The notes: generated from the sequence alone by a model not told the origin. 32,000 nt of DNA from Xanthomonas campestris pv. campestris str. ATCC 33913 (GCF_000007145.1 NC_003902.1:4913426-4945425); one strand, 5' to 3'. Counted from the first letter of the stretch, positions 18,932-30,260 are shown. A program made the numbers and translations.

Positions 18932-20908
18932 TTAGTCGAACAACGCCTGGATCGCCGCCAGCCCCGCGTTGGCGCGTTCCTTCTTGCGTTCGGCATCGGC
19001 CACCGGGTCGGCGCCGTCGCGTTGCAGTTCGGCCGCCGGAATCTCGTCGAAGAAGCGGCTCGGCTTCAGTCGCACATGCTCGCCGAACTTGCGCGTCAAC
19101 TTGCTGTAGCTCATCCACAACTGCTGCTTGGCGCGGGTAATGCCCACGTACAACAGGCGCCGCTCTTCCTGCAGGTTGCCTTCTTCCAGGCTGACCTCGT
19201 GCGGCAGCACGCCGTCCTCGCAGCCAACGATGAACACGTAGCGGAATTCCAGGCCCTTGGACGCATGCATGGTCATCATGCGCACCTGGTTGCCGCCGTC
19301 GTCCTTGTCGTTACGCGACAGCAGCGCCAACTGCGCCGCCAGATCGCTGGCGCTGGCGCCACGCGGGCCGCCTTCGAACCATTCGGCCAGCTCATCGAGG
19401 TTGCGCTTGCGGCGCTGGAACCCGGCTTCGTCCTTGGACTGATTGCGCAGGTCGTTGAGCAGGCCGGACTTGTCGGCCAAGGTGCGCACCAATTCGCCGG
19501 CCGGCAGCGTGGCCGAATGCTCGCGCATATCGCGCAGGATGTCGGTAAATGCGCTCAGGCCGTTGGCCGCACGCGGCGGCAAGTGCTGCAGCGCGCCCAT
19601 CGATTCGGCCGCGCGTGACATCGGCACCGACTTGGCACTGGCCAGTTCGGCCAATCGCGCCAGCGAGGTCGCACCGACTTCGCGCTTGGGCGACTGCACC
19701 GCACGCAAGAACGCGGCGTCGTCTTCGGGATTGACGATCAGCCGCAACCACGACAGCACGTCCTTGACCTCCTGCCGCTCCAAAAACGCGGTGCCGCCGG
19801 TGAGGTGGTACGGCACACGCAGCAACTGCAGCGCCTTTTCCAGTGGCCGCGACTGGAAGTTGCCACGGAACAGGATGCAGAAATCGCTCCACGGCACCTG
19901 CTTGGCCGTGCCCAGGAACGAAATCTCGGCGGCCACTTTTTCCGCTTCGTGCTCGCTGTCGCGGCACTCCCACACGCGAATGCGCTCACCGTCGGCCTGG
20001 TCGCTCCACAGGGTCTTCAAGTGCTCGTGCGGGTTGTGCGCGATCAAGGCATTGGCCGCACGCAGCACGCGGTTGGAGCAACGGTAGTTCTGCTCCAGCT
20101 TGATGATTTCCAGCGCCGGGTAGTCGCGCCCCATCTGCTGCAGGTTTTCCGGGTTGGCGCCACGCCAAGCGTAGATGCTCTGGTCGTCGTCGCCCACGCA
20201 GGTAAAGTTGCCGCGCGGCCCGGCCAGCATCTTCAGCAGCCGGTACTGCGCATCGTTGGTGTCCTGGCACTCGTCGACCAGCAGGTAGCCGATGCGTTCG
20301 CGCCAGCCCATCACGATCTCTTCGTTGGCCTCCAGGATCTGCACCGGCAGGCGGATCAGGTCATCGAAGTCCACCGCGTTGAAGGTGGTCAGCCGCGCCT
20401 GGTAGCGCTCATACAGGCTGGCCGCTTCCTTCTCGCGGTTGCTGCGCGCCGCAGCCATCGCCTGCTCGGGCGACATGCCGGCGTTCTTGGCCCGCGAAAT
20501 CAGGTTCTTGGCGTCTTCGATCGCATCGGGCTTGGCCCCATGCATCAGGTCCTTGATCTGCGCGGCCGCATCGTCGGAATCGAAGATCGAAAACCCACGC
20601 TTCAACCCGGCCGCGGCATGCTCGATCTGCAGGAACTTCAACCCCAGCGCGTGGAAGGTACAGATGGTCAGCCCGTCGGCCCCGTCGCCACGGATACGCT
20701 TGGCCACACGCTCGCGCATTTCCTTGGCCGACTTGTTGGTAAAGGTGATCGCGGCGATGCGCTTGGCCGGATAGCGGCCGATGGCGATCAGATGCGCGAT
20801 CTTCTCCACGATCACGCGCGTCTTGCCGCTGCCGGCACCGGCCAGCACCAACAAGGGACCTTCGCAGTGCAGGACGGCAGCGCTTTGCGGGGGATTGAGA
20901 CCGTGCAT
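18932..20908 (-). CDS. rep: ATP-dependent DNA helicase Rep (UvrD/Rep SF1 family)
   Basis: Track ORF 18932..20920 (TTG). ATG at 20908 gives MHGLNPPQSAAVLHCEGPLLVLAGAGSGKTRVIVEKIAHLI, the Walker A motif. Also present are DECQDTN (motif II), QNYRCSNRVL, TMHASKGLEF and YVGITRAK. At 658 aa the size fits Rep rather than UvrD. Confidence 0.92.
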   Translation of the reverse strand: MHGLNPPQSAAVLHCEGPLLVLAGAGSGKTRVIVEKIAHLIAIGRYPAKRIAAITFTNKSAKEMRERVAKRIRGDGADGLTICTFHALGLKFLQIEHAAAGLKRGFSIFDSDDAAAQIKDLMHGAKPDAIEDAKNLISRAKNAGMSPEQAMAAARSNREKEAASLYERYQARLTTFNAVDFDDLIRLPVQILEANEEIVMGWRERIGYLLVDECQDTNDAQYRLLKMLAGPRGNFTCVGDDDQSIYAWRGANPENLQQMGRDYPALEIIKLEQNYRCSNRVLRAANALIAHNPHEHLKTLWSDQADGERIRVWECRDSEHEAEKVAAEISFLGTAKQVPWSDFCILFRGNFQSRPLEKALQLLRVPYHLTGGTAFLERQEVKDVLSWLRLIVNPEDDAAFLRAVQSPKREVGATSLARLAELASAKSVPMSRAAESMGALQHLPPRAANGLSAFTDILRDMREHSATLPAGELVRTLADKSGLLNDLRNQSKDEAGFQRRKRNLDELAEWFEGGPRGASASDLAAQLALLSRNDKDDGGNQVRMMTMHASKGLEFRYVFIVGCEDGVLPHEVSLEEGNLQEERRLLYVGITRAKQQLWMSYSKLTRKFGEHVRLKPSRFFDEIPAAELQRDGADPVADAERKKERANAGLAAIQALFD

Positions 20909-21022
20909 AGGGACTTCCAACAGAGCGGGCCATTGTACCGGCGCGGCTGCGGGCAGGCCGCCGGCGTCGGTTCATGCGGCAAGCCATGACCGCACGCCAC
21001 CTGACCCGGTAAACTCATCCAA

Positions 21023-21041
21023 TGGCCAAGCTCTATTTCTA
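21023..21041. repeat. left copy of 19-bp direct repeat (attL-like core) at the native tdk start
   Basis: TGGCCAAGCTCTATTTCTA is identical to 25089..25107. Here it is preceded by A, giving ATG GCC AAG CTC TAT TTC TA. It continues TTATT, against CTACT at the right copy. Confidence 0.9.
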
Positions 21042-21518
21042 TTATTGGCGTAAGAGGGTGTTCAGAGGCGTAAGTAAATGGCTGTTTCTTAGCTTATTTT
21101 CGGGCCGTCTTCGTAAGTTGGTTTCAGGTTGTATTCGGACGCGATACCGTCGGCATGACACCGGCTGCTTATGCCCAACATCTGACAAACACCGATATCA
21201 TCAACCCCGGACTCTAAACCAAGCCGCTACTCAGGGCGGGGGGACGTCGATTGGTCCAATCGGCTTTTTGAGTTCTTTCGACGCGAGGCCCGGCGCTTGG
21301 GGGATCTCAAGACGCATGGGCTGCCCGCCTATGCGAACCAGCCCCATGGGACCTTGATCGTTCTGTGTTCCGCCGAGCGAGAACAAAGCTTGAAGATGAG
21401 CGCCAGAGTGCAGCGCGTTATTGCGGAGGCTTGAAGGCTTGGAGAATGTCCGAAGTGATACGCCCAGGGTTTCCTAGACATCTCAAGGCCATGGAAAATG
21501 GTCGATTCGGAGGTGCCT

Positions 21519-21791
21519 ATGAGCAGCAAGCGATATACGGATGAGTTCAAGATCGAGGCGGTCCGGCAAGTGACTGATCGTGGGTTCAAGGTGGCAGAAG
21601 TCGCCGAGCGGCTGGGTGTCACGACGCACAGCCTGTACGCCTGGCTGCGCACGTTCGGCAAGTCTGGCGTGGTGCATCGCGCCGAGGTGGACCAGAGCGC
21701 CGAGGTTCGGCGGCTGAAGGCAGAGTTGCGTCGAGTGACCGAGGAGCGCGACATCCTAAAAAAGGCCGCCGCGTACTTTGCCAAGGGGTAA
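21519..21791 (+). CDS. IS3-family transposase OrfA (HTH)
   Basis: MSSKRYTDEFKIEAVRQVTDRGFKVAEVAERLGVTTHSLYAWLRTFGK is an HTH_Tnp_1-type domain. A leucine-zipper-like segment RRLKAELRRVTEERDILKKAAAYF follows. GGAGG lies 5 nt upstream of the ATG at 21519. The track start at 21498 is an upstream in-frame ATG. Confidence 0.9.
   Translation: MSSKRYTDEFKIEAVRQVTDRGFKVAEVAERLGVTTHSLYAWLRTFGKSGVVHRAEVDQSAEVRRLKAELRRVTEERDILKKAAAYFAKG
21758..21764 (+). promoter_or_regulatory. programmed -1 ribosomal frameshift heptamer A AAA AAG
   Basis: In orfA's zero frame the sequence reads CTA AAA AAG (L K K). The heptamer therefore sits as A AAA AAG in X XXY YYZ register. The -1 frame is open from here into orfB (KKGRRVLCQGVKAKYAFMQAHCGEF...), as in IS3-family OrfAB fusions. 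Confidence 0.8.
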
Positions 21792-21808
21792 AGGCAAAGT
21801 ACGCCTTC

Positions 21809-22663
21809 ATGCAAGCCCACTGCGGGGAATTCAGGGTGTGTGCAATGTGCCGGGTATTGCGGGTCAACCGGTCGGGTTATTACGCCTGGTTGTGCTCGCC
21901 CAACAGTGAGCGCGCCAAGGAAGATGATCGCTTGCTTGGACTAATCAAGCACCACTGGCTGGCCAGCGGCAGTGTCTATGGGCATCGCAAGATCACCACG
22001 GATCTGCGCGATCTGGGTGAGCGTTGTAGTCGTCATCGGGTGCATCGGCTGATGCGCACCGAGGGACTGCGTGCCCAGGTGGGCTATGGTCGCAAACCGC
22101 GCTTCCATGGAGGAATGCAGTGCAAGGCGGCGGCCAACCTGCTTGACCGACAGTTCGACGTGACGGAGCCGGACACGGCCTGGGCGAGCGATTTCACCTT
22201 CATCCGCACGCATGAAGGCTGGATGTATTTGGCTGTTGTGATCGATCTGTTTTCCAGGCAGGTCGTCGGCTGGGCGATGCGCGATCGGGCCGACACCGAG
22301 TTGGTCGTGCAGGCGGTGTTGTCTGCGGTGTGGCGGCGCAAACCCAACGCTGGTTGCTTGGTTCATTCGGACCAAGGGTCTGTCTACACCAGCGATGACT
22401 GGCGCAGTTTCCTGGCGTCCCATGGCTTGGTGTGCAGCATGAGTCGGCGTGGCAACTGCCACGACAACGCACCCGTGGAGAGCTTCTTCGGCCTGCTCAA
22501 ACGCGAGCGGATCAGGCGGCGGACCTATCCCACCAAGGACGCCGCTCGCGCCGAGGTATTCGACTACATCGAGATGTTCTACAACCCCAACCGCCGCCAC
22601 GGTTCAACTGGCGACCTGTCACCTGTAGAGTTTGAACGGCGCTACGCGCAACGAGGGTCTTGA
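21809..22663 (+). CDS. IS3-family transposase OrfB (DDE / rve integrase domain), normally expressed as an OrfAB fusion
   Basis: WASDFTFIRTHEGWMYLAVVIDLFSRQVVGW has the first D, LVHSDQGSVYTS the second D, and CHDNAPVESFFGLLKRE the E. These are the classic rve catalytic-core blocks. The frame is -1 relative to orfA. Confidence 0.9.
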   Translation: MQAHCGEFRVCAMCRVLRVNRSGYYAWLCSPNSERAKEDDRLLGLIKHHWLASGSVYGHRKITTDLRDLGERCSRHRVHRLMRTEGLRAQVGYGRKPRFHGGMQCKAAANLLDRQFDVTEPDTAWASDFTFIRTHEGWMYLAVVIDLFSRQVVGWAMRDRADTELVVQAVLSAVWRRKPNAGCLVHSDQGSVYTSDDWRSFLASHGLVCSMSRRGNCHDNAPVESFFGLLKRERIRRRTYPTKDAARAEVFDYIEMFYNPNRRHGSTGDLSPVEFERRYAQRGS

Positions 22664-24691
22664 GTGTCTACGGAACCCTGGGCGTATCACCCACTTGTTC
22701 ATGTCCTTCTTACGGTCTCCCGAAGAGAACCGAGCGAACAACTTGGAGATGCGCTCTATTTCTTCCTGAGCCTTCTTGTGATTGTCCTCATCAACGGGGA
22801 GCACTCTTTCGCGCGCTGGATCGTCGATGCCCACGAATTGGGAGTAGCACATGAAGACTTCGCCCTGCGCTTCGTCATCAGCTACTTTTTTGCGCATGAT
22901 AAGAATAGACGTCTTGACTCTTGCTTCAGATCGCTGGAAGGCGTCGCCTGGCAGCGATACAACCGCTTCTACGATGTATTTTTGGGCTAGCCAGGCACGG
23001 GTAGTCGCGAAAGCCTTGCTGCCTAGTACGCTATCGTCTATCACGCTCACCAAACGCCCTCCTGGTTTGAGGAAGTCTAGATAACGCTCCAAGAACATTG
23101 CGCTCGACTTAAGTTTGGCTTTCGGAAGGATCTCGGCGGGACCGTCGTACGACAGCTCATACGCATCCAAAACCGACGGTGCGTATGCACGTCCACCACC
23201 CCGCTTCTTACGTTCGTAATCGCGCGCAAAGGGCGGATTTGTCAGTGCGACGTCAGCAAAGCCCTCAGCGTTGTCCTTCAGGACACGCTTAAAGTCTCTA
23301 AGTTCGGACCTGGACTCTGGGCTAGCATTGTTTTCCTCTGCGAGCCCCTTGTCCAATGCGTCCAACTGATAGATTGCGCTTCCGCCGTCTCCATGCAGAT
23401 ACATGTTCATTCTGGCGATGCGGGCCAGTGCCGGATCTTTGGCCGAGTCAATTCCGTAGATGCACTTAGTTGCGATATCGTTCTTAAGCTCATTCTTTGC
23501 AGCCTGCGACAGCTTGGGAGAGCTCTCAACCTTCTTCCACATAGCCGCCAGAGCCTCGATAAGGAACCCCCCACTTCCGCAGCATCCATCAATAACTACA
23601 TCGCATCCCTGATGCTTGATCCCAACTTGCAGATCAGACATCGCGACCGCCAACTTGACGACGCTTCGCGGCGTAAAGTACTGACCAAGCGACTTGCCCC
23701 TCAGAGTGGCATTCAGGAACGTCTCAAATAGACGACCATTGATATCGGCGTCCAAACCGTAGAGATCGGCGGATTCCAGACGCCGGACGATGTCTTTTGT
23801 CAGATCTTTGCTCAGGGCTAGCTTCTCGTTTTCCGAGAAGATGCGTTTTTTGTTTTGCTGTTTTATTTGGAGTTCAAGACTCTCACGAAGCTCATCAAAT
23901 CGGACAGCAATTGGATTATCAATCCCAGCTTCTTCCGCCGCATTGATGGCAGCCACAGAGAACTTCACATTGCGGGCAGGCTCGATCACCTGAAAAACGC
24001 CGGATTCAGCCATTTCAGGGTTCTTTTCGTGTACTTCGCGGTCTGATAGAAGCTTGATGAAGATAAGCTTCACAAATTCCATAAACGCAGCAGTGTAGCT
24101 GAGCGCGTCTTTTCTATGTATCTGATCATGGCACCAAGCAAAATCAGCGTTTAGATCGTTAGCGCTCTTCCTGCGTATTGTCAGGCTGGGCAACTGTTCG
24201 TTGAGCTGAACATTCAGTTTATCGCTATCAGCGGATAGCAGTTCCTTAAGCTGTTTTAGCTTCGGATTGCCCACCGCGAAGTCTTTGAAATCCATCACGA
24301 GAAGCGGCCGGCTTGAGTCCCAGTGGTACACGCGGGTTTCTTTGCCATTCGTCAGCATGTAGTAAAGGACGGGGTTCTCACCTGGGCCGTATCGCTCGTT
24401 AAGCTCATGGCAATAGCTCTTACATTGGCCGCGCCATTTCTCAATACCCTCTGATGGGCTCTTCGCATCACAGACCCAGCGAACGTGGCCGCCCTTAGTG
24501 ACAGCGAAATCAGGCCGATACAGTACACGCCGCCGACCAGCGCTAACAGAAAGCGTCTCGATGGTCTCTTTCAGCCGGATATTGGTGTCCTTGTAGCCAA
24601 GGAGGTCCTTCAGCATCCTCGCCATGAAGAACGACTCCACTCCGGCCTCGTTCCTAAGGTCCTTGTCCGTGCAAAGGATATTTTTAGTCAT
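22619..24691 (-). CDS. fusion of a PD-(D/E)xK (HSDR_N-like) nuclease domain with an HsdM-type gamma-class N6-adenine DNA methyltransferase; 3' end interrupted by the IS (native sequence 22690..24691, last 23 codons IS-encoded)
   Basis: ATG at 24691 gives MTKNILCTDKDL.... The track start GTG at 24736 is an alternative. The N-terminus is NEAGVESFFMARMLKDLLGYKD...VLYRPDFAV...VRWVCDAKSP, the type I R-subunit N-terminal nuclease pattern (E..VE, LGY, PD, D-x-K). The middle is HsdM_N-like (FAWCHDQIHRKDALSYTAAFMEFVKLIFIKLLSD). MTase motif X is LGQYFTPRSVV and motif I is VVIDGCCGSGGFLIEA. Then come IYGIDSAKDPALARIARMNMYLHG and motif IV LTNPPFA. The reading frame crosses the IS right end at 22689/22690 (...DMNKW | VIRPGFRRHS...LYR*). 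Confidence 0.85.
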   Translation of the reverse strand: MTKNILCTDKDLRNEAGVESFFMARMLKDLLGYKDTNIRLKETIETLSVSAGRRRVLYRPDFAVTKGGHVRWVCDAKSPSEGIEKWRGQCKSYCHELNERYGPGENPVLYYMLTNGKETRVYHWDSSRPLLVMDFKDFAVGNPKLKQLKELLSADSDKLNVQLNEQLPSLTIRRKSANDLNADFAWCHDQIHRKDALSYTAAFMEFVKLIFIKLLSDREVHEKNPEMAESGVFQVIEPARNVKFSVAAINAAEEAGIDNPIAVRFDELRESLELQIKQQNKKRIFSENEKLALSKDLTKDIVRRLESADLYGLDADINGRLFETFLNATLRGKSLGQYFTPRSVVKLAVAMSDLQVGIKHQGCDVVIDGCCGSGGFLIEALAAMWKKVESSPKLSQAAKNELKNDIATKCIYGIDSAKDPALARIARMNMYLHGDGGSAIYQLDALDKGLAEENNASPESRSELRDFKRVLKDNAEGFADVALTNPPFARDYERKKRGGGRAYAPSVLDAYELSYDGPAEILPKAKLKSSAMFLERYLDFLKPGGRLVSVIDDSVLGSKAFATTRAWLAQKYIVEAVVSLPGDAFQRSEARVKTSILIMRKKVADDEAQGEVFMCYSQFVGIDDPARERVLPVDEDNHKKAQEEIERISKLFARFSSGDRKKDMNKWVIRPGFRRHSRPSLRVAPFKLYR

Positions 24692-25087
24692 GCTGCCCTT
24701 AACTCCATCATGTCCTGTACTGTGACCACCAATCACTTTTTGGCTTTTGGTGATCAGTGCACCTGCACGTCTAACTGGCGGTCCAAGTCCACGCTATCGC
24801 GTGGGCGCTTGGTCTAACGATCTATGCTAGCTCAGGACAGCCCGAAGACGTCATTGCAGCAGCTTCGAGCCACTGCATTGGCGCGGTACAGTGGCGTCAG
24901 GCCATCTCGTATCCTGAGACAGCGCTCATGTTCGGGAAGCTGCGTTGCAACCGATTGCAACAGACGGTCCGTGCTGGACTCGCGGCACCGGCTGCAAGTG
25001 ACGGTATAACTGTCGGTACTGGTTCACAGTCATGCGTCCGCTTCCTACATAATTCCCATTAAATTCAATACCTTAAGTTGAACCCAG

Positions 25088-25717
25088 TTGGCCAAGCTCT
25101 ATTTCTACTACTCGGCAATGAATGCCGGGAAGACCACCACCTTGCTGCAGTCGGCGCACAACTACCGCGAGCGGGGTATGCGCACGTCCATCCTCACGCC
25201 CAAGCTCGATCACCGCGCCGGCAGCGGCGTGGTCGCCTCGCGCATCGGCTTGCGCGCCGATGGGCAGACCTTCGACCGCCAGACCGAGTTGCTGCAGTTG
25301 ATCGAGCGCGACATTGCCGCGCACGGCCCGCTGCACTGCGTGCTGGTCGACGAGGCGCAGTTCCTCAGCAGCGCGCAGGTCTGGCAGCTGAGCGAGGTGG
25401 TCGACCGCCTGCGCATCCCGGTGCTCTGCTACGGGTTGCGGACCGATTTCCGCGGCGAGCTGTTCGAAGGCAGCCAGTTCCTGCTGGCCTGGGCCGATGA
25501 GCTGGAAGAGATCAAGACCATCTGCCACAGCGGCAGCAAGGCCACCATGACCGTGCGCGTGGACGCACAAGGGCATGCGGTGCAGGACGGCCCGCAGGTG
25601 GAGATCGGCGGCAACGAGCGCTATGTCTCGGTCAGCCGCGCCGAGTTCAAGAAGATCATGCGTGGCGAAGGCCGGATCGACCCGCTGCAGATCGCGTTGC
25701 CGTTGCCGCCGGCGTAA
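25088..25717 (+). CDS. tdk: thymidine kinase (start codon now TTG; native ATG and upstream region displaced 4 kb to the left)
   Basis: (M)[32 protein letters not shown]...[11 protein letters not shown]...[44 protein letters not shown]...[12 protein letters not shown] is near-colinear with E. coli Tdk ([17 protein letters not shown]...). 209 aa. Confidence 0.9.
25089..25107. repeat. right copy of 19-bp direct repeat (attR-like core) at the present tdk 5' end
   Basis: TGGCCAAGCTCTATTTCTA is identical to 21023..21041. Here it is preceded by T, giving TTG GCC AAG.... Confidence 0.9.
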
Positions 25718-30103: not shown

Positions 30104-30260
30104 GCCCAACTCCGCATCCATCGATCAGCCAATTGTCGCGCGCTGGTGCGCGGCACACCAGCAAGTGCGCTGCAGGAGCGAGCGCTGCCGATGTCTGCAG
30201 GTGCAACTGGCAAAGCACCAAATAATGCGAAACGTAGACGCGATGCCGACATGCATCGGA

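Follow-up and report, generated by a model that had tools for sequence, protein, structure and literature searches.

The SXT/R391 ICEs, which measure ~100 kb and carry int, xis and a conjugation apparatus, insert at the 5′ end of prfC, where the core is 17 bp long, and supply a new promoter and new first codons that keep the gene functional. CIMEs of the ICESt family of Streptococcus thermophilus are att-flanked remnants without a recombination module; deletion is their presumed origin, they depend on functions in trans to move, and the cognate integrase-bearing element at the same site is known. The dusA-specific islands sit in the 5′ end of their target gene between direct repeats that are 19-28 bp long and semi-conserved, and they provide the gene with a replacement 5′ end (including beta-strand 1) and new upstream DNA; an integrase gene of the dusA-associated tyrosine integrases always lies beside the target gene, and the islands excise as circles (Farrugia et al., 2015, PMC4482086). 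Restriction-modification (RM) units also form a class termed “insertion with long target duplication” (Nobusato et al., 2000; Furuta, Abe and Kobayashi, 2010, PMC2853133), sought in two screens, the first for target duplications of >30 bp and the second for those of at least 20 bp, with copies that match the empty site.

The islet described here occupies the start of tdk (thymidine kinase) in a window of 32,000 nucleotides, the whole stretch of Xanthomonas campestris pv. campestris ATCC 33913 DNA that was analysed (Table 1). Like the dusA islands, it is an insertion into the 5′ end of a housekeeping gene, with short direct repeats, a replacement 5′ coding end and cargo that varies at the site; unlike them, it targets tdk and has no integrase, islet size is 2.6-3.5 kb, and occupancy is seen in X. 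campestris only. The locus displays repeats matching the target, an empty site, varied cargo and a restored frame, as islands of the dusA/prfC type do, but not an integrase gene inside the element beside the att site. With SXT/R391 at prfC it shares a short core in a protein-coding 5′ end and a target kept functional by element sequence, although int, xis and the conjugation apparatus are missing. As in CIMEs, the cargo lies between attL- and attR-like repeats with no integrase, whereas a cognate integrase-bearing element at tdk was not found in our searches.

Table 1. Features of the tdk islet and its flanks (window coordinates).
Feature	Position	Strand	Remarks
rep/uvrD-type helicase gene, left core flank	18932-20920	-	Pfam UvrD-helicase E=1.2e-85
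Native rep-tdk intergenic DNA	20921-21022	+	Orphaned tdk promoter and start
Junk ORF, 111 codons (MAKLYFYY, then islet sequence)	21022-21357	+	From ORF list; made by the insertion
Left direct repeat, attL-like	21023-21048	+	Perfect core 21023-21041; extension TATTATT to 21048
Left arm of islet, 99 bp, 44% GC	21042-21140	+	
3′-terminal remnant of second IS3-family element, IS1404-like, ~110 bp	21141-21249	+	5′ part deleted
RM gene, last 11 codons (...SDILQAFKPPQ) and stop	21418-21455	-	Severed from gene body
Complete IS3-family element	21456-22689	+	orfA ~21498-21791; orfB 21809-22663
RM gene, first 667 codons	22690-24691	-	Type IIG-like single-chain restriction-modification gene
Right arm of islet, non-coding, 397 bp, 54% GC	24692-25088	.	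Ends ...TCAATACCTTAAGTTGAACCCAGT
tdk (thymidine kinase), 209 codons	25088-25717	+	Pfam TK E=1.4e-46
Right direct repeat, attR-like	25089-25114	+	Perfect core 25089-25107; extension TACTACT; within functional-looking tdk

The perfect direct repeat on which the preliminary description rested was located as two exact copies of the 19-mer TGGCCAAGCTCTATTTCTA, and the window holds only these two even when 2 mismatches are tolerated; 100 shuffles gave 0 matches, none being expected by chance. The imperfect extension it had reported beyond the core is likewise present, bringing the repeat to 24/26 over 26 bp (5/7 in the extension itself), and (M)AKLYFYY is indeed what both copies encode. The 10 RM-islet loci examined all share one sequence for the left copy, which agrees with the empty site of X. 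campestris at 24/26 positions, the right copy agreeing at 26/26. The differences in the extension are two synonymous changes at third codon positions (TAT TAT vs TAC TAC). Since X. melonis, Stenotrophomonas and Lysobacter have TAT TAT in their tdk, the left extension appears to be tdk-derived and not copied from the resident allele, as would be expected of the P′ side of an attP. The same sites are polymorphic inside X. campestris (L129 and L130 read TATTACT), which makes this argument weaker, though it does not remove it.

That the repeat is a chance match, or belongs to a larger duplication of tdk, has a negligible probability. The start of tdk is highly conserved and somewhat AT-rich, and nothing further speaks for this explanation, which is refuted by the shuffles (0/100 with an extra copy) and by empty sites with a single copy; moreover, the similarity ends after 26 bp. 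Because no more than 19-26 bp of tdk are duplicated, the segmental duplication that had been named as a possible refutation does not apply.

No dyad symmetry or hairpin was detected in the core, secondary structure in attB, attL, attR and a reconstructed attP was not significant (z-scores -0.1 to -1.5), and Rfam returned no match. Insertion as an integron cassette or by a hairpin-dependent route (attC, IS200/IS605-type) was rejected, as palindromic recombination sites and subterminal hairpins are lacking. Similarly, the islet ends have no terminal inverted repeats beyond chance and the IS elements are internal, so that a transposon-like RM unit or an IS-bounded composite was discarded.

To the left, rep is the conserved neighbour of tdk throughout the Lysobacteraceae. 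The left repeat had been described as keeping the native ATG and upstream DNA; in agreement, the 102 bp from the rep start to the ATG equal the rep-tdk gap at the empty sites of X. euroxanthea and X. arboricola (L001 and L003). A -10-like TAAACT (21010-21015) ends 6 nt ahead of the A of the native ATG (21022), and a TAnnnT hexamer ending 5-8 nt before the ATG occurs in 49/80 species against a background of 0.5%. The intergenic segment diverges strongly from that of empty-site X. campestris strains. The junk ORF behind this native promoter has no Pfam match, and public annotations of the locus do not list it as a gene. The right repeat is indeed joined to the rest of tdk, where element sequence restores the reading frame and yields an intact gene of the full 209 codons. 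Its start codon is TTG here, ATG in empty-site strains and GTG in strains with the RES islet described below; the change from ATG to TTG arises because the base before the repeat is islet-derived. Hundreds of X. campestris assemblies contain the same protein.

The visible drop in base composition noted earlier amounts to a fall from 65% GC in the flanking DNA to 44-54% where the insert is not IS sequence; the ancestral insert, reconstructed from several strains, comprises ~3.5 kb and one gene, with 52% GC. The left arm, without a match in plasmids or phages, contains CGTAAG three times (21049, 21069 and 21112) within 70 bp of the left core, the sole + strand copies in the window, and these are possible arm-type sites of a recombinase. 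Regarding the cargo, the IS3-family element and a truncated RM fusion gene are as previously described, but they are accompanied by a second IS remnant, which is IS1404-like. Lying 99 bp from the left repeat, this remnant matches, at 90-96% identity, the 3′ end of transposase genes of the IS1404 family and the IS end on 58 Xanthomonas plasmids, and is the scar of an earlier IS insertion and deletion within the islet; its proximity to the repeat means that genes may have been lost there.

The 667 codons left at the start of the RM gene specify an N-terminal nuclease motif, PD...DAK, together with an N6-adenine methyltransferase domain (Pfam N6_Mtase E=1.4e-30, Eco57I E=9e-8). In PADLOC, the reconstructed 908-aa protein matches MTase_II, REase_MTase_IIG and Specificity_I (the last spanning residues 735-878); a PDFAV...CDAKS motif lies near residue 60, and the best solved relative is RM.BsaXI (E=4e-18). 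Intact homologues of 908 aa exist (P0370, P0364 and P0365), as does an intact X. campestris copy (WP_274509323.1). Judged by its domains, the reconstructed or intact protein fits Type IIG, with a predicted nuclease, gamma-type N6-adenine methyltransferase and target-recognition domain in one chain. In the window, the severed 3′ end of the gene translates to the C-terminus of P0001 and P0370, and comparison with L081 indicates that the complete IS3-family element took the place of 686 bp. Since the target-recognition domain is thereby deleted, the gene is a pseudogene here. The element has 26-bp imperfect terminal inverted repeats, Pfam HTH_Tnp_1 and rve domains, no target-site duplication (flanking bases GAAG vs CCCA), and full-length copies of 99.8% identity on X. 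campestris plasmids. The IS elements are later additions, as other strains lack them at those positions, and the RM gene has been disabled independently in different strains.

Alignment with related genomes, proposed in the preliminary description, yielded insert-free sites with a single copy in X. campestris (L099-L102), X. arboricola, X. euroxanthea and 24 X. hortorum contigs. The empty site predicted there is correct as to the coding bases, whereas those immediately before the ATG are different, real sites reading ...GGTAAAATCCCCCGATGGCC.... Relatives that keep both repeats without ever having had the cargo were not encountered: one strain (L096) retains both repeats and almost no cargo, yet it derives from that islet by a secondary deletion, which begins exactly at 21250, the edge of the IS1404-like remnant. 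The junctions are identical in all ten RM-islet loci, and islet identity is 99.9% even where the flanks of two strains diverge by ~2%. The tract of low divergence reaches ~250 bp beyond both repeats; between L081 and the window, 20775-25309 shows no differences except 3 inside the islet. Together, these observations indicate a single insertion of the islet and its later spread between X. campestris lineages through homologous recombination in the flanks. Such homology could not have carried the unit between genera, and an RM protein 97% identical occurs in Stenotrophomonas maltophilia (WP_414486293.1, HGM5142509.1), which implies that the unit crosses genera. The closest homologues of the RM and RES genes outside Xanthomonas lie in unrelated genomic contexts.

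In some X. campestris strains (L090, L129 and L130) the site holds another cargo, a RES-toxin gene pair consisting of a RES-domain protein and a 218-aa partner. The RES and RM islets join tdk at one and the same nucleotide, after the first base of the start codon (...CTAG and ...CAGT, respectively, each followed by TGGCCAAG). The inserts have no similarity except a 9-nt motif, TCAATA[C/A]CT, which stands in the right arm and at the same offset in the RES islet. The use of an identical nucleotide by an unrelated cargo argues for a site-specific process. Also in favour of such a process are the IS scar, in a place that an integrase gene could have occupied, the three CGTAAG motifs beside the left repeat, and the synonymous nature of the two differences in the extension. 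With respect to tdk as an integration hotspot in this group, different cargos (RM, RES) at the one site bear this out within X. campestris, but not beyond it. At its left junction the RES islet keeps only ATGGC, next to a truncated IS, an arrangement that fits an illegitimate join as well as a later deletion. The IS remnants at the left end of both islets imply that deletions have happened there.

No gene for an integrase, excisionase or any other recombinase was found (by ORFs and Pfam) in the islet, in its RES counterpart, in the rest of the window or in the reconstructed ancestral islet; the islet is decayed, as had been proposed. The integrase-carrying relative with the same core that was expected did not come to light. 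Among 80 Lysobacteraceae species, no integrase-bearing element or second copy of the tdk start lay within 10 kb of tdk; 24 X. hortorum contigs and 24 contigs of Pseudoxanthomonas/Stenotrophomonas type had no integrase-bearing relative at tdk, and viral, plasmid, phage and metagenome collections had no attP-like junction. The IS scars at the left end may leave room for an earlier loss of an integrase. The original view of an att-type integrative element is partly supported: it holds for a foreign insertion at the first tdk codons with a duplicated 5′ end, and the former integrase is a supposition.

The best explanation, to which we give about an even chance, is a decayed att-type integration that rebuilt the 5′ end of tdk, in the manner of the dusA and prfC islands, by an exchange of the attP x attB type. 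A small foreign DNA molecule would have carried one Type IIG RM gene together with a 19-26-bp copy of the first codons of a tdk gene, and would have recombined reciprocally, once, with the chromosomal tdk start, most likely through a tyrosine integrase and less likely by a Campbell-type crossover on short homology. One hybrid repeat would thus be left at each end, the left one joining the native promoter and ATG to islet sequence, and the right one joining islet sequence to the rest of tdk, with frame and first beta-strand rebuilt, a new upstream region and a TTG start. We infer a recombinase and its loss: it may have acted in trans, or have been deleted with the missing part of the IS1404-like element. 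The islet would now be immobile except through flank homologous recombination among X. campestris lineages, with decay under way where the second IS3-family element removed the RM target-recognition domain in this window. In itself, the locus is a fairly ordinary insertion scar without a surviving mobility gene.

A rather unlikely alternative dispenses with a dedicated recombinase and att site: a DNA break in the tdk start would have admitted the RM gene, and repair would have duplicated the 19-26-bp target. The lone RM unit (R and M functions, insert <20 kb, no other mobility gene), the start-spanning direct repeats around an intact target gene and the empty site in a relative recall the RM class with long target duplication, in which Type IIG genes with 20-25 bp repeats are included (Furuta et al., 2010, PMC2853133); the absence of terminal inverted repeats agrees with it, and the RES islet, with the same right boundary and a shorter apparent duplication (TGGC), could reflect “long and variable” duplication from a fixed nick. 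Against this, the repeat (19 bp perfect, or 24/26) falls short of the 30-bp criterion and is borderline for the 20-bp one, in a class without a demonstrated mechanism. Such repair also predicts identical copies, whereas the left extension has its two synonymous differences in an islet otherwise 99.9% conserved, and two unrelated cargos (one of them non-RM) at the same junction nucleotide would not be expected from random breakage. The site might instead be a defence-gene hotspot between core genes, its cargo swapped from other Xanthomonas by recombination in the rep and tdk flanks and the repeat no functional site but an incidental by-product of an old join, illegitimate or facilitated by homology, in the donor, which we consider unlikely. 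The low-divergence tract running past both repeats is in keeping with this, as is the truncated IS fragment abutting ATGGC in the RES islet; furthermore, with flanking genes at 98-99.9% identity, the empty, RM and RES haplotypes still differ sharply in their rep-tdk intergenic DNA, which suggests that each cargo came with its own intergenic segment. Swapping accounts for spread but not for origin, and leaves unexplained the tdk-derived 26 bp at the left end, the identical junction nucleotide of two unrelated cargos and the 97% identical RM protein in another genus.

Another reading would make the first nucleotides of the tdk transcript, probably leaderless, a dedicated landing site for a family of tiny integrase-less defence or toxin islets, moved in trans by a recombinase from elsewhere or by fixed-nick break-and-copy and travelling between Stenotrophomonas and Xanthomonas with a mimic of the tdk start that rebuilds the gene with a non-ATG start; we regard it as quite improbable.

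The right arm contains no ORF with homologues. It must hold the RM promoter, and any promoter that tdk now has is supplied by it. A scan of the arm returned no consensus promoter; by eye, TTCACA-N19-CATAAT at 25023-25053 can be picked out as a candidate.

The preliminary description had placed an AT-richer foreign insert, bounded by a perfect direct repeat, at the first codons of tdk, and this arrangement is confirmed as written by pattern counts, shuffles, reading frames and GC content. In the whole 32-kb window, the 19-mer TGGCCAAGCTCTATTTCTA has exactly two copies, at the two ends of the islet, even with two mismatches allowed, and matches were obtained in 0/100 dinucleotide-preserving shuffles of the window. 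Past this perfect core, the similarity continues over 5/7 positions (TATTATT in the left, attL-like copy and TACTACT in the right, attR-like copy). The native ATG precedes the left copy, 102 bp from the start of the helicase gene, and the tdk gene opened by the right copy now starts with TTG. GC content is 65% in the flanks, 44% in the left arm, 52% in the restriction-modification (RM) gene and 54% in the right arm. The best reading, to which we give about an even chance, is that an att-type exchange placed a small defence islet at the start of the tdk coding sequence and that this RM islet is what remains of it, no longer mobile and eroded by ISs.

Features of the rep-tdk region and the RM islet (window coordinates)
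Feature	Position	Strand	Description
rep/uvrD-type helicase gene	18932-20920		divergent from tdk
TAnnnT hexamer before native ATG	21010-21015		-10-like box
Native ATG	21022		directly before left copy
Junk ORF	21022-21357		111 codons
Left repeat copy	21023-21041	+	extension to 21048
Left-arm remainder	21042-21140		99 bp, left repeat to IS1404-like scar
CGTAAG motifs	21049, 21069, 21112	+	GGCGTAAG, GGCGTAAG, TTCGTAAG
IS1404-like remnant	21141-21249(-21264)		transposase gene end and IS terminus
Terminator-like hairpin	21246-21264	+	followed by TTTTTGAGTT
Last 11 RM codons	21418-21455		immediately across IS from RM gene body
Complete IS3-family element	21456-22689		26-bp terminal inverted repeats; orfA and orfB; HTH_Tnp_1 and rve domains
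RM gene fragment	22690-24691	-	first 667 residues of N6-adenine methyltransferase fusion
Candidate promoter	25023-25053		TTCACA-N19-CATAAT, weak, by eye
TCAATA[C/A]CT motif	25064-25072		right arm
tdk, thymidine kinase	25088-25717		209 codons, intact, opened by right copy; Pfam TK E=1.4e-46
Right repeat copy	25089-25107	+	extension to 25114

The thymidine kinase of the window is residue-for-residue identical in hundreds of X. campestris assemblies, and X. campestris pv. campestris 8004 (CP000050.1) carries the whole arrangement at 99.7% identity. A one-genome-per-species scan yielded 80 Lysobacteraceae tdk loci, in none of which a second tdk-start copy within 10 kb of tdk, or the RM gene, was found; rep-tdk spacing is 102 bp in X. 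euroxanthea and X. arboricola. The site is empty in four X. campestris loci (L099-L102), which read ...GGTAAAATCCCCCGATGGCCAAGCTCTATTTCTACTACTCGGCAATGAATGCC..., in all 24 X. hortorum contigs and in all Pseudoxanthomonas/Stenotrophomonas-type tdk sites examined. The empty-site sequence predicted beforehand agrees with the four X. campestris loci in its coding part, to which its correctness is limited. Neither of the two outcomes named as contrary to an insertion occurs, namely relatives with two repeats and no cargo or a larger duplication of tdk, and both are excluded. Longer rep-tdk gaps in other genera were considered as insertions and rejected, their contents being native genes such as those for Sel1-repeat proteins.

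A different insert lies between rep and tdk in CP017308.1 (L090) and in four contigs (L129-L132) found via the same RES protein. This RES islet encodes a RES-domain protein and, upstream of it, a partner of 218 aa, and also holds a truncated IS3-family fragment; it has no nucleotide similarity to the RM islet. Its right junction reads ...TTTTTCTAG/TGGCCAAGCTC, with GTG as the tdk start, against ...GAACCCAGT/TGGCCAAGCTC in the window and ...CCCCCGA/TGGCCAAGCTC at the empty site (slash, junction), the junction nucleotide being common to all three states; L129 and L130, the two contigs reaching tdk, have the same right junction as L090. Random insertion hardly explains why two unrelated cargos meet tdk at a single nucleotide, one base inside the start codon; any position in the 100-200-bp intergenic region would be less harmful. 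The only motif common to both right arms is the 9-nt TCAATA[C/A]CT, offset 16-24 nt from the junction (L090 7977-7985), with 8/9 matches and a shuffle P of about 0.006. At the left end of the RES islet, ATGGC alone is kept and is directly followed by a truncated IS reading frame (...QQNAYV); therefore, the left repeat was lost or was never longer than TGGC. A CGTAAG at this left junction was considered as a common element end and rejected, as it belongs to the truncated transposase frame.

An att-type exchange, for which a circular form of the islet would carry the junction ...GAACCCAGTTGGCCAAGCTCTATTTCTATTATTGGCGTAAG..., would account for the hybrid repeat copies, the restored frame and the junction common to two cargos, as well as for the tdk-like left extension with TAT TAT in place of the resident TAC TAC. 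The two changes are transitions at third codon positions and are synonymous, and X. melonis, Stenotrophomonas and Lysobacter have TAT TAT as their tdk allele. By our own estimate, the chance of 5/7 extension matches with exactly this pattern is well under 1e-3, although the extension sites are polymorphic within X. campestris too, L129 and L130 reading TATTACT. The likeness to dusA-specific islands is close: these carry 19-28-bp semi-conserved repeats in the dusA 5' end and replace the target 5' end including beta-strand 1 (PMC4482086), and at tdk the repeats likewise lie at the 5' end of the target gene, which is rebuilt. However, the integrase, which defines the dusA-specific islands and is their sole common feature (PMC4482086), is absent from the tdk islet. 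The search for an intact relative pairing an integrase with the same core gave none at tdk among the 80 Lysobacteraceae loci, the X. hortorum and other contigs, and the viral, plasmid, phage and metagenome scans. In viral contigs, exact patterns of the core, the left junction and both arms were searched for and gave nothing; the one metagenome scan, made with the left junction, gave 17 hits, all of them rejected as fortuitous matches to AT-rich genomes, lacking the tdk core. The nearest homologues of the RM (67%) and RES (84-89%) proteins all lie in unrelated defence neighbourhoods without tdk, and no conservation of the non-coding arms was found around them; elsewhere, both cargos keep company with defence genes. 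An RM homologue of 68% identity adjoins a small resolvase/invertase gene (L086 3335-3901), and an 84% identical RES pair lies downstream of rho, beside a SIR2-HerA defence pair (L121 6137-9228).

The main rival explanation is the “insertion with long target duplication” of the Kobayashi group, in which a lone RM unit is flanked by target repeats. Members of this class are lone RM units without mobility genes, their target repeats often span a start or stop codon, and Type IIG cases with 20-25-bp repeats are included, the mechanism being unknown (PMC2853133). The islet is likewise a lone RM unit without a mobility gene and its repeats lie across a translation start; nevertheless, the tdk repeat is shorter than the class criteria, one of its two copies differs from the resident target, and a non-RM cargo uses the same junction. 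In a third reading, rep-tdk is an ordinary flank-recombination hotspot, which accounts for the spread among X. campestris lineages but leaves the origin of the islet unexplained. Integron-type (GTTRRRY) and dif/Xer-type sites were rejected from the sequence, since cassette insertion gives no 19-bp repeat and the core is not a dif-like 28-mer. Searches for transposon-like ends, hairpins, Rfam families and consensus promoters or terminators gave nothing informative. A role of tdk as a dedicated landing site for mini-islets that are mobilised in trans and common to Stenotrophomonas and Xanthomonas appears unlikely.

The erosion of the islet is visible at its left end. An attP-like query (right arm, core and left arm) searched in plasmids and phages had its sole match in a segment with 90-96% identity to the terminal ~100 bp of IS1404-family elements. 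Thus, the islet once contained a second IS, of which a later deletion took away the 5' part and some adjoining islet DNA. Three CGTAAG motifs stand within 70 bp beside the left repeat, and none is found elsewhere on the + strand of the 32-kb window. By position, the scarred left end would correspond to that at which the integrase gene and arm-type sites lie in many islands. Relative to the orphaned tdk promoter, the terminator-like hairpin around the end of the IS1404-like remnant is downstream, and it faces the RM gene in convergent orientation.

In L081 (CP066997.1), another X. campestris locus, the RM gene runs 241 codons further to the C-terminus ...SDILQAFKPPQ. As its 11 terminal codons sit beyond the IS in the window, comparison with L081 indicates that the IS stands in place of 686 bp that encoded the target-recognition domain. 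This IS3-family element has 99.8% identical copies on X. campestris plasmids and no target-site duplication around it. The RM gene has been knocked out independently in different strains: by the IS and the 686-bp deletion in the window, by a different IS at window-equivalent 24410-24414, near the 5' end of the gene, in L081, by an extra IS5-like element nested in the IS in L092, and by a deletion of ~3.1 kb (21250-24388) in L096. An additional IS3-family element (377-aa transposase) lies in L081 at window-equivalent about 30173-30176, a site that is empty in the window. An intact 908-aa RM protein from one X. campestris genome (WP_274509323.1) is present in the protein cluster, and two S. maltophilia proteins of 908 aa (WP_414486293.1, HGM5142509.1) are 97% identical to the X. 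campestris version, far above the core proteins of both genera (rep about 83%). The domains of the reconstructed protein are N6_Mtase, Eco57I and, at 735-878, a Type I S-like half recognition domain; a PD...DAK nuclease motif lies near residue 60, and the best solved relative is RM.BsaXI. From these motifs, the protein is predicted to be a Type IIG-like single-chain R-M-S enzyme, represented in the window by a pseudogene. After removal of the ISs, the ancestral insert comes to about 3.5 kb, with its single gene between arms of about 376 bp (left) and 397 bp (right). In the public annotation of 8004 and ATCC 33913 (AAY51272.1, AAM43363.1), the truncated gene is a 487-aa “XmnI methyltransferase”, a name unsupported by the domain architecture seen.

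The junctions are identical in 10/10 RM-islet loci. Between the window and L081, the flanks differ about every 50 bp, while 20775-25309 holds only three differences, all within the islet; L088 and L096 have comparable low-divergence tracts. The near-identical tract extends about 250 bp past both repeats, and therefore the passage of the islet among X. campestris lineages took some flank DNA along and did not depend on recurrent site-specific integration. Divergence from the empty-site strains is unusually high in the 78 bp immediately upstream of the left ATG, which suggests a somewhat different Xanthomonas background for the original insertion. The three X. campestris haplotypes (empty, RM islet and RES islet) have rep-tdk intergenic DNA (window 20945-21022; L090 5355-5528; L099 7880-8000) of sharply different length and sequence, and the genes flanking it are 98-99.9% identical across the three.

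No paper describing tdk as an integration target was found in the literature. The phenomenon can be assigned to kinds already described, repeat-flanked RM units and islands that restore the 5' end of their target, and is no new class of system. If the att-type reading holds, tdk would join dusA, prfC and tRNA genes as a conserved gene end used for landing, and the islet would be a compact example of a defence gene delivered, fixed by loss of mobility, spread by flank recombination and destroyed by ISs. Apart from mechanism, the three states of the locus, which is empty or holds the RM or the RES islet, make it a practical marker of strains in X. campestris pv. campestris.

A TAnnnT hexamer (TAGAAT, TAAACT, TAAAAT...) ends at a distance of 5-8 nt, most often 6, upstream of the A of the tdk start codon in 49/80 species, against a background of 0.5%, and no Shine-Dalgarno sequence precedes tdk in the Lysobacteraceae loci. 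Given this promoter geometry and the missing Shine-Dalgarno sequence, the tdk mRNA is probably leaderless and begins at the A of the ATG across the family. In the window, the native promoter and ATG now serve the junk ORF and the real tdk has islet DNA upstream, in which the promoter scan found no consensus promoter and a weak candidate was noted. The duplicated codons encode KLYFYY, the strand before the P-loop, and the next ATG is codon 11; since a start there would lose this strand, rebuilding of the codons would be needed to keep the enzyme. In most sequenced strains, tdk is without its native promoter and ATG, which matters for its use as a counter-selection marker and for nucleoside-salvage phenotypes. 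In several genera, pyrimidine-rich repeats of the ATTCCC(C)GATTCCCGG type occupy the 30 nt up to the tdk ATG (L062, L063, L065, L071, L072, and L010, L015, L021), standing in place of the -10-like box, and these have the appearance of one family of short intergenic repeats that has inserted at a single position.
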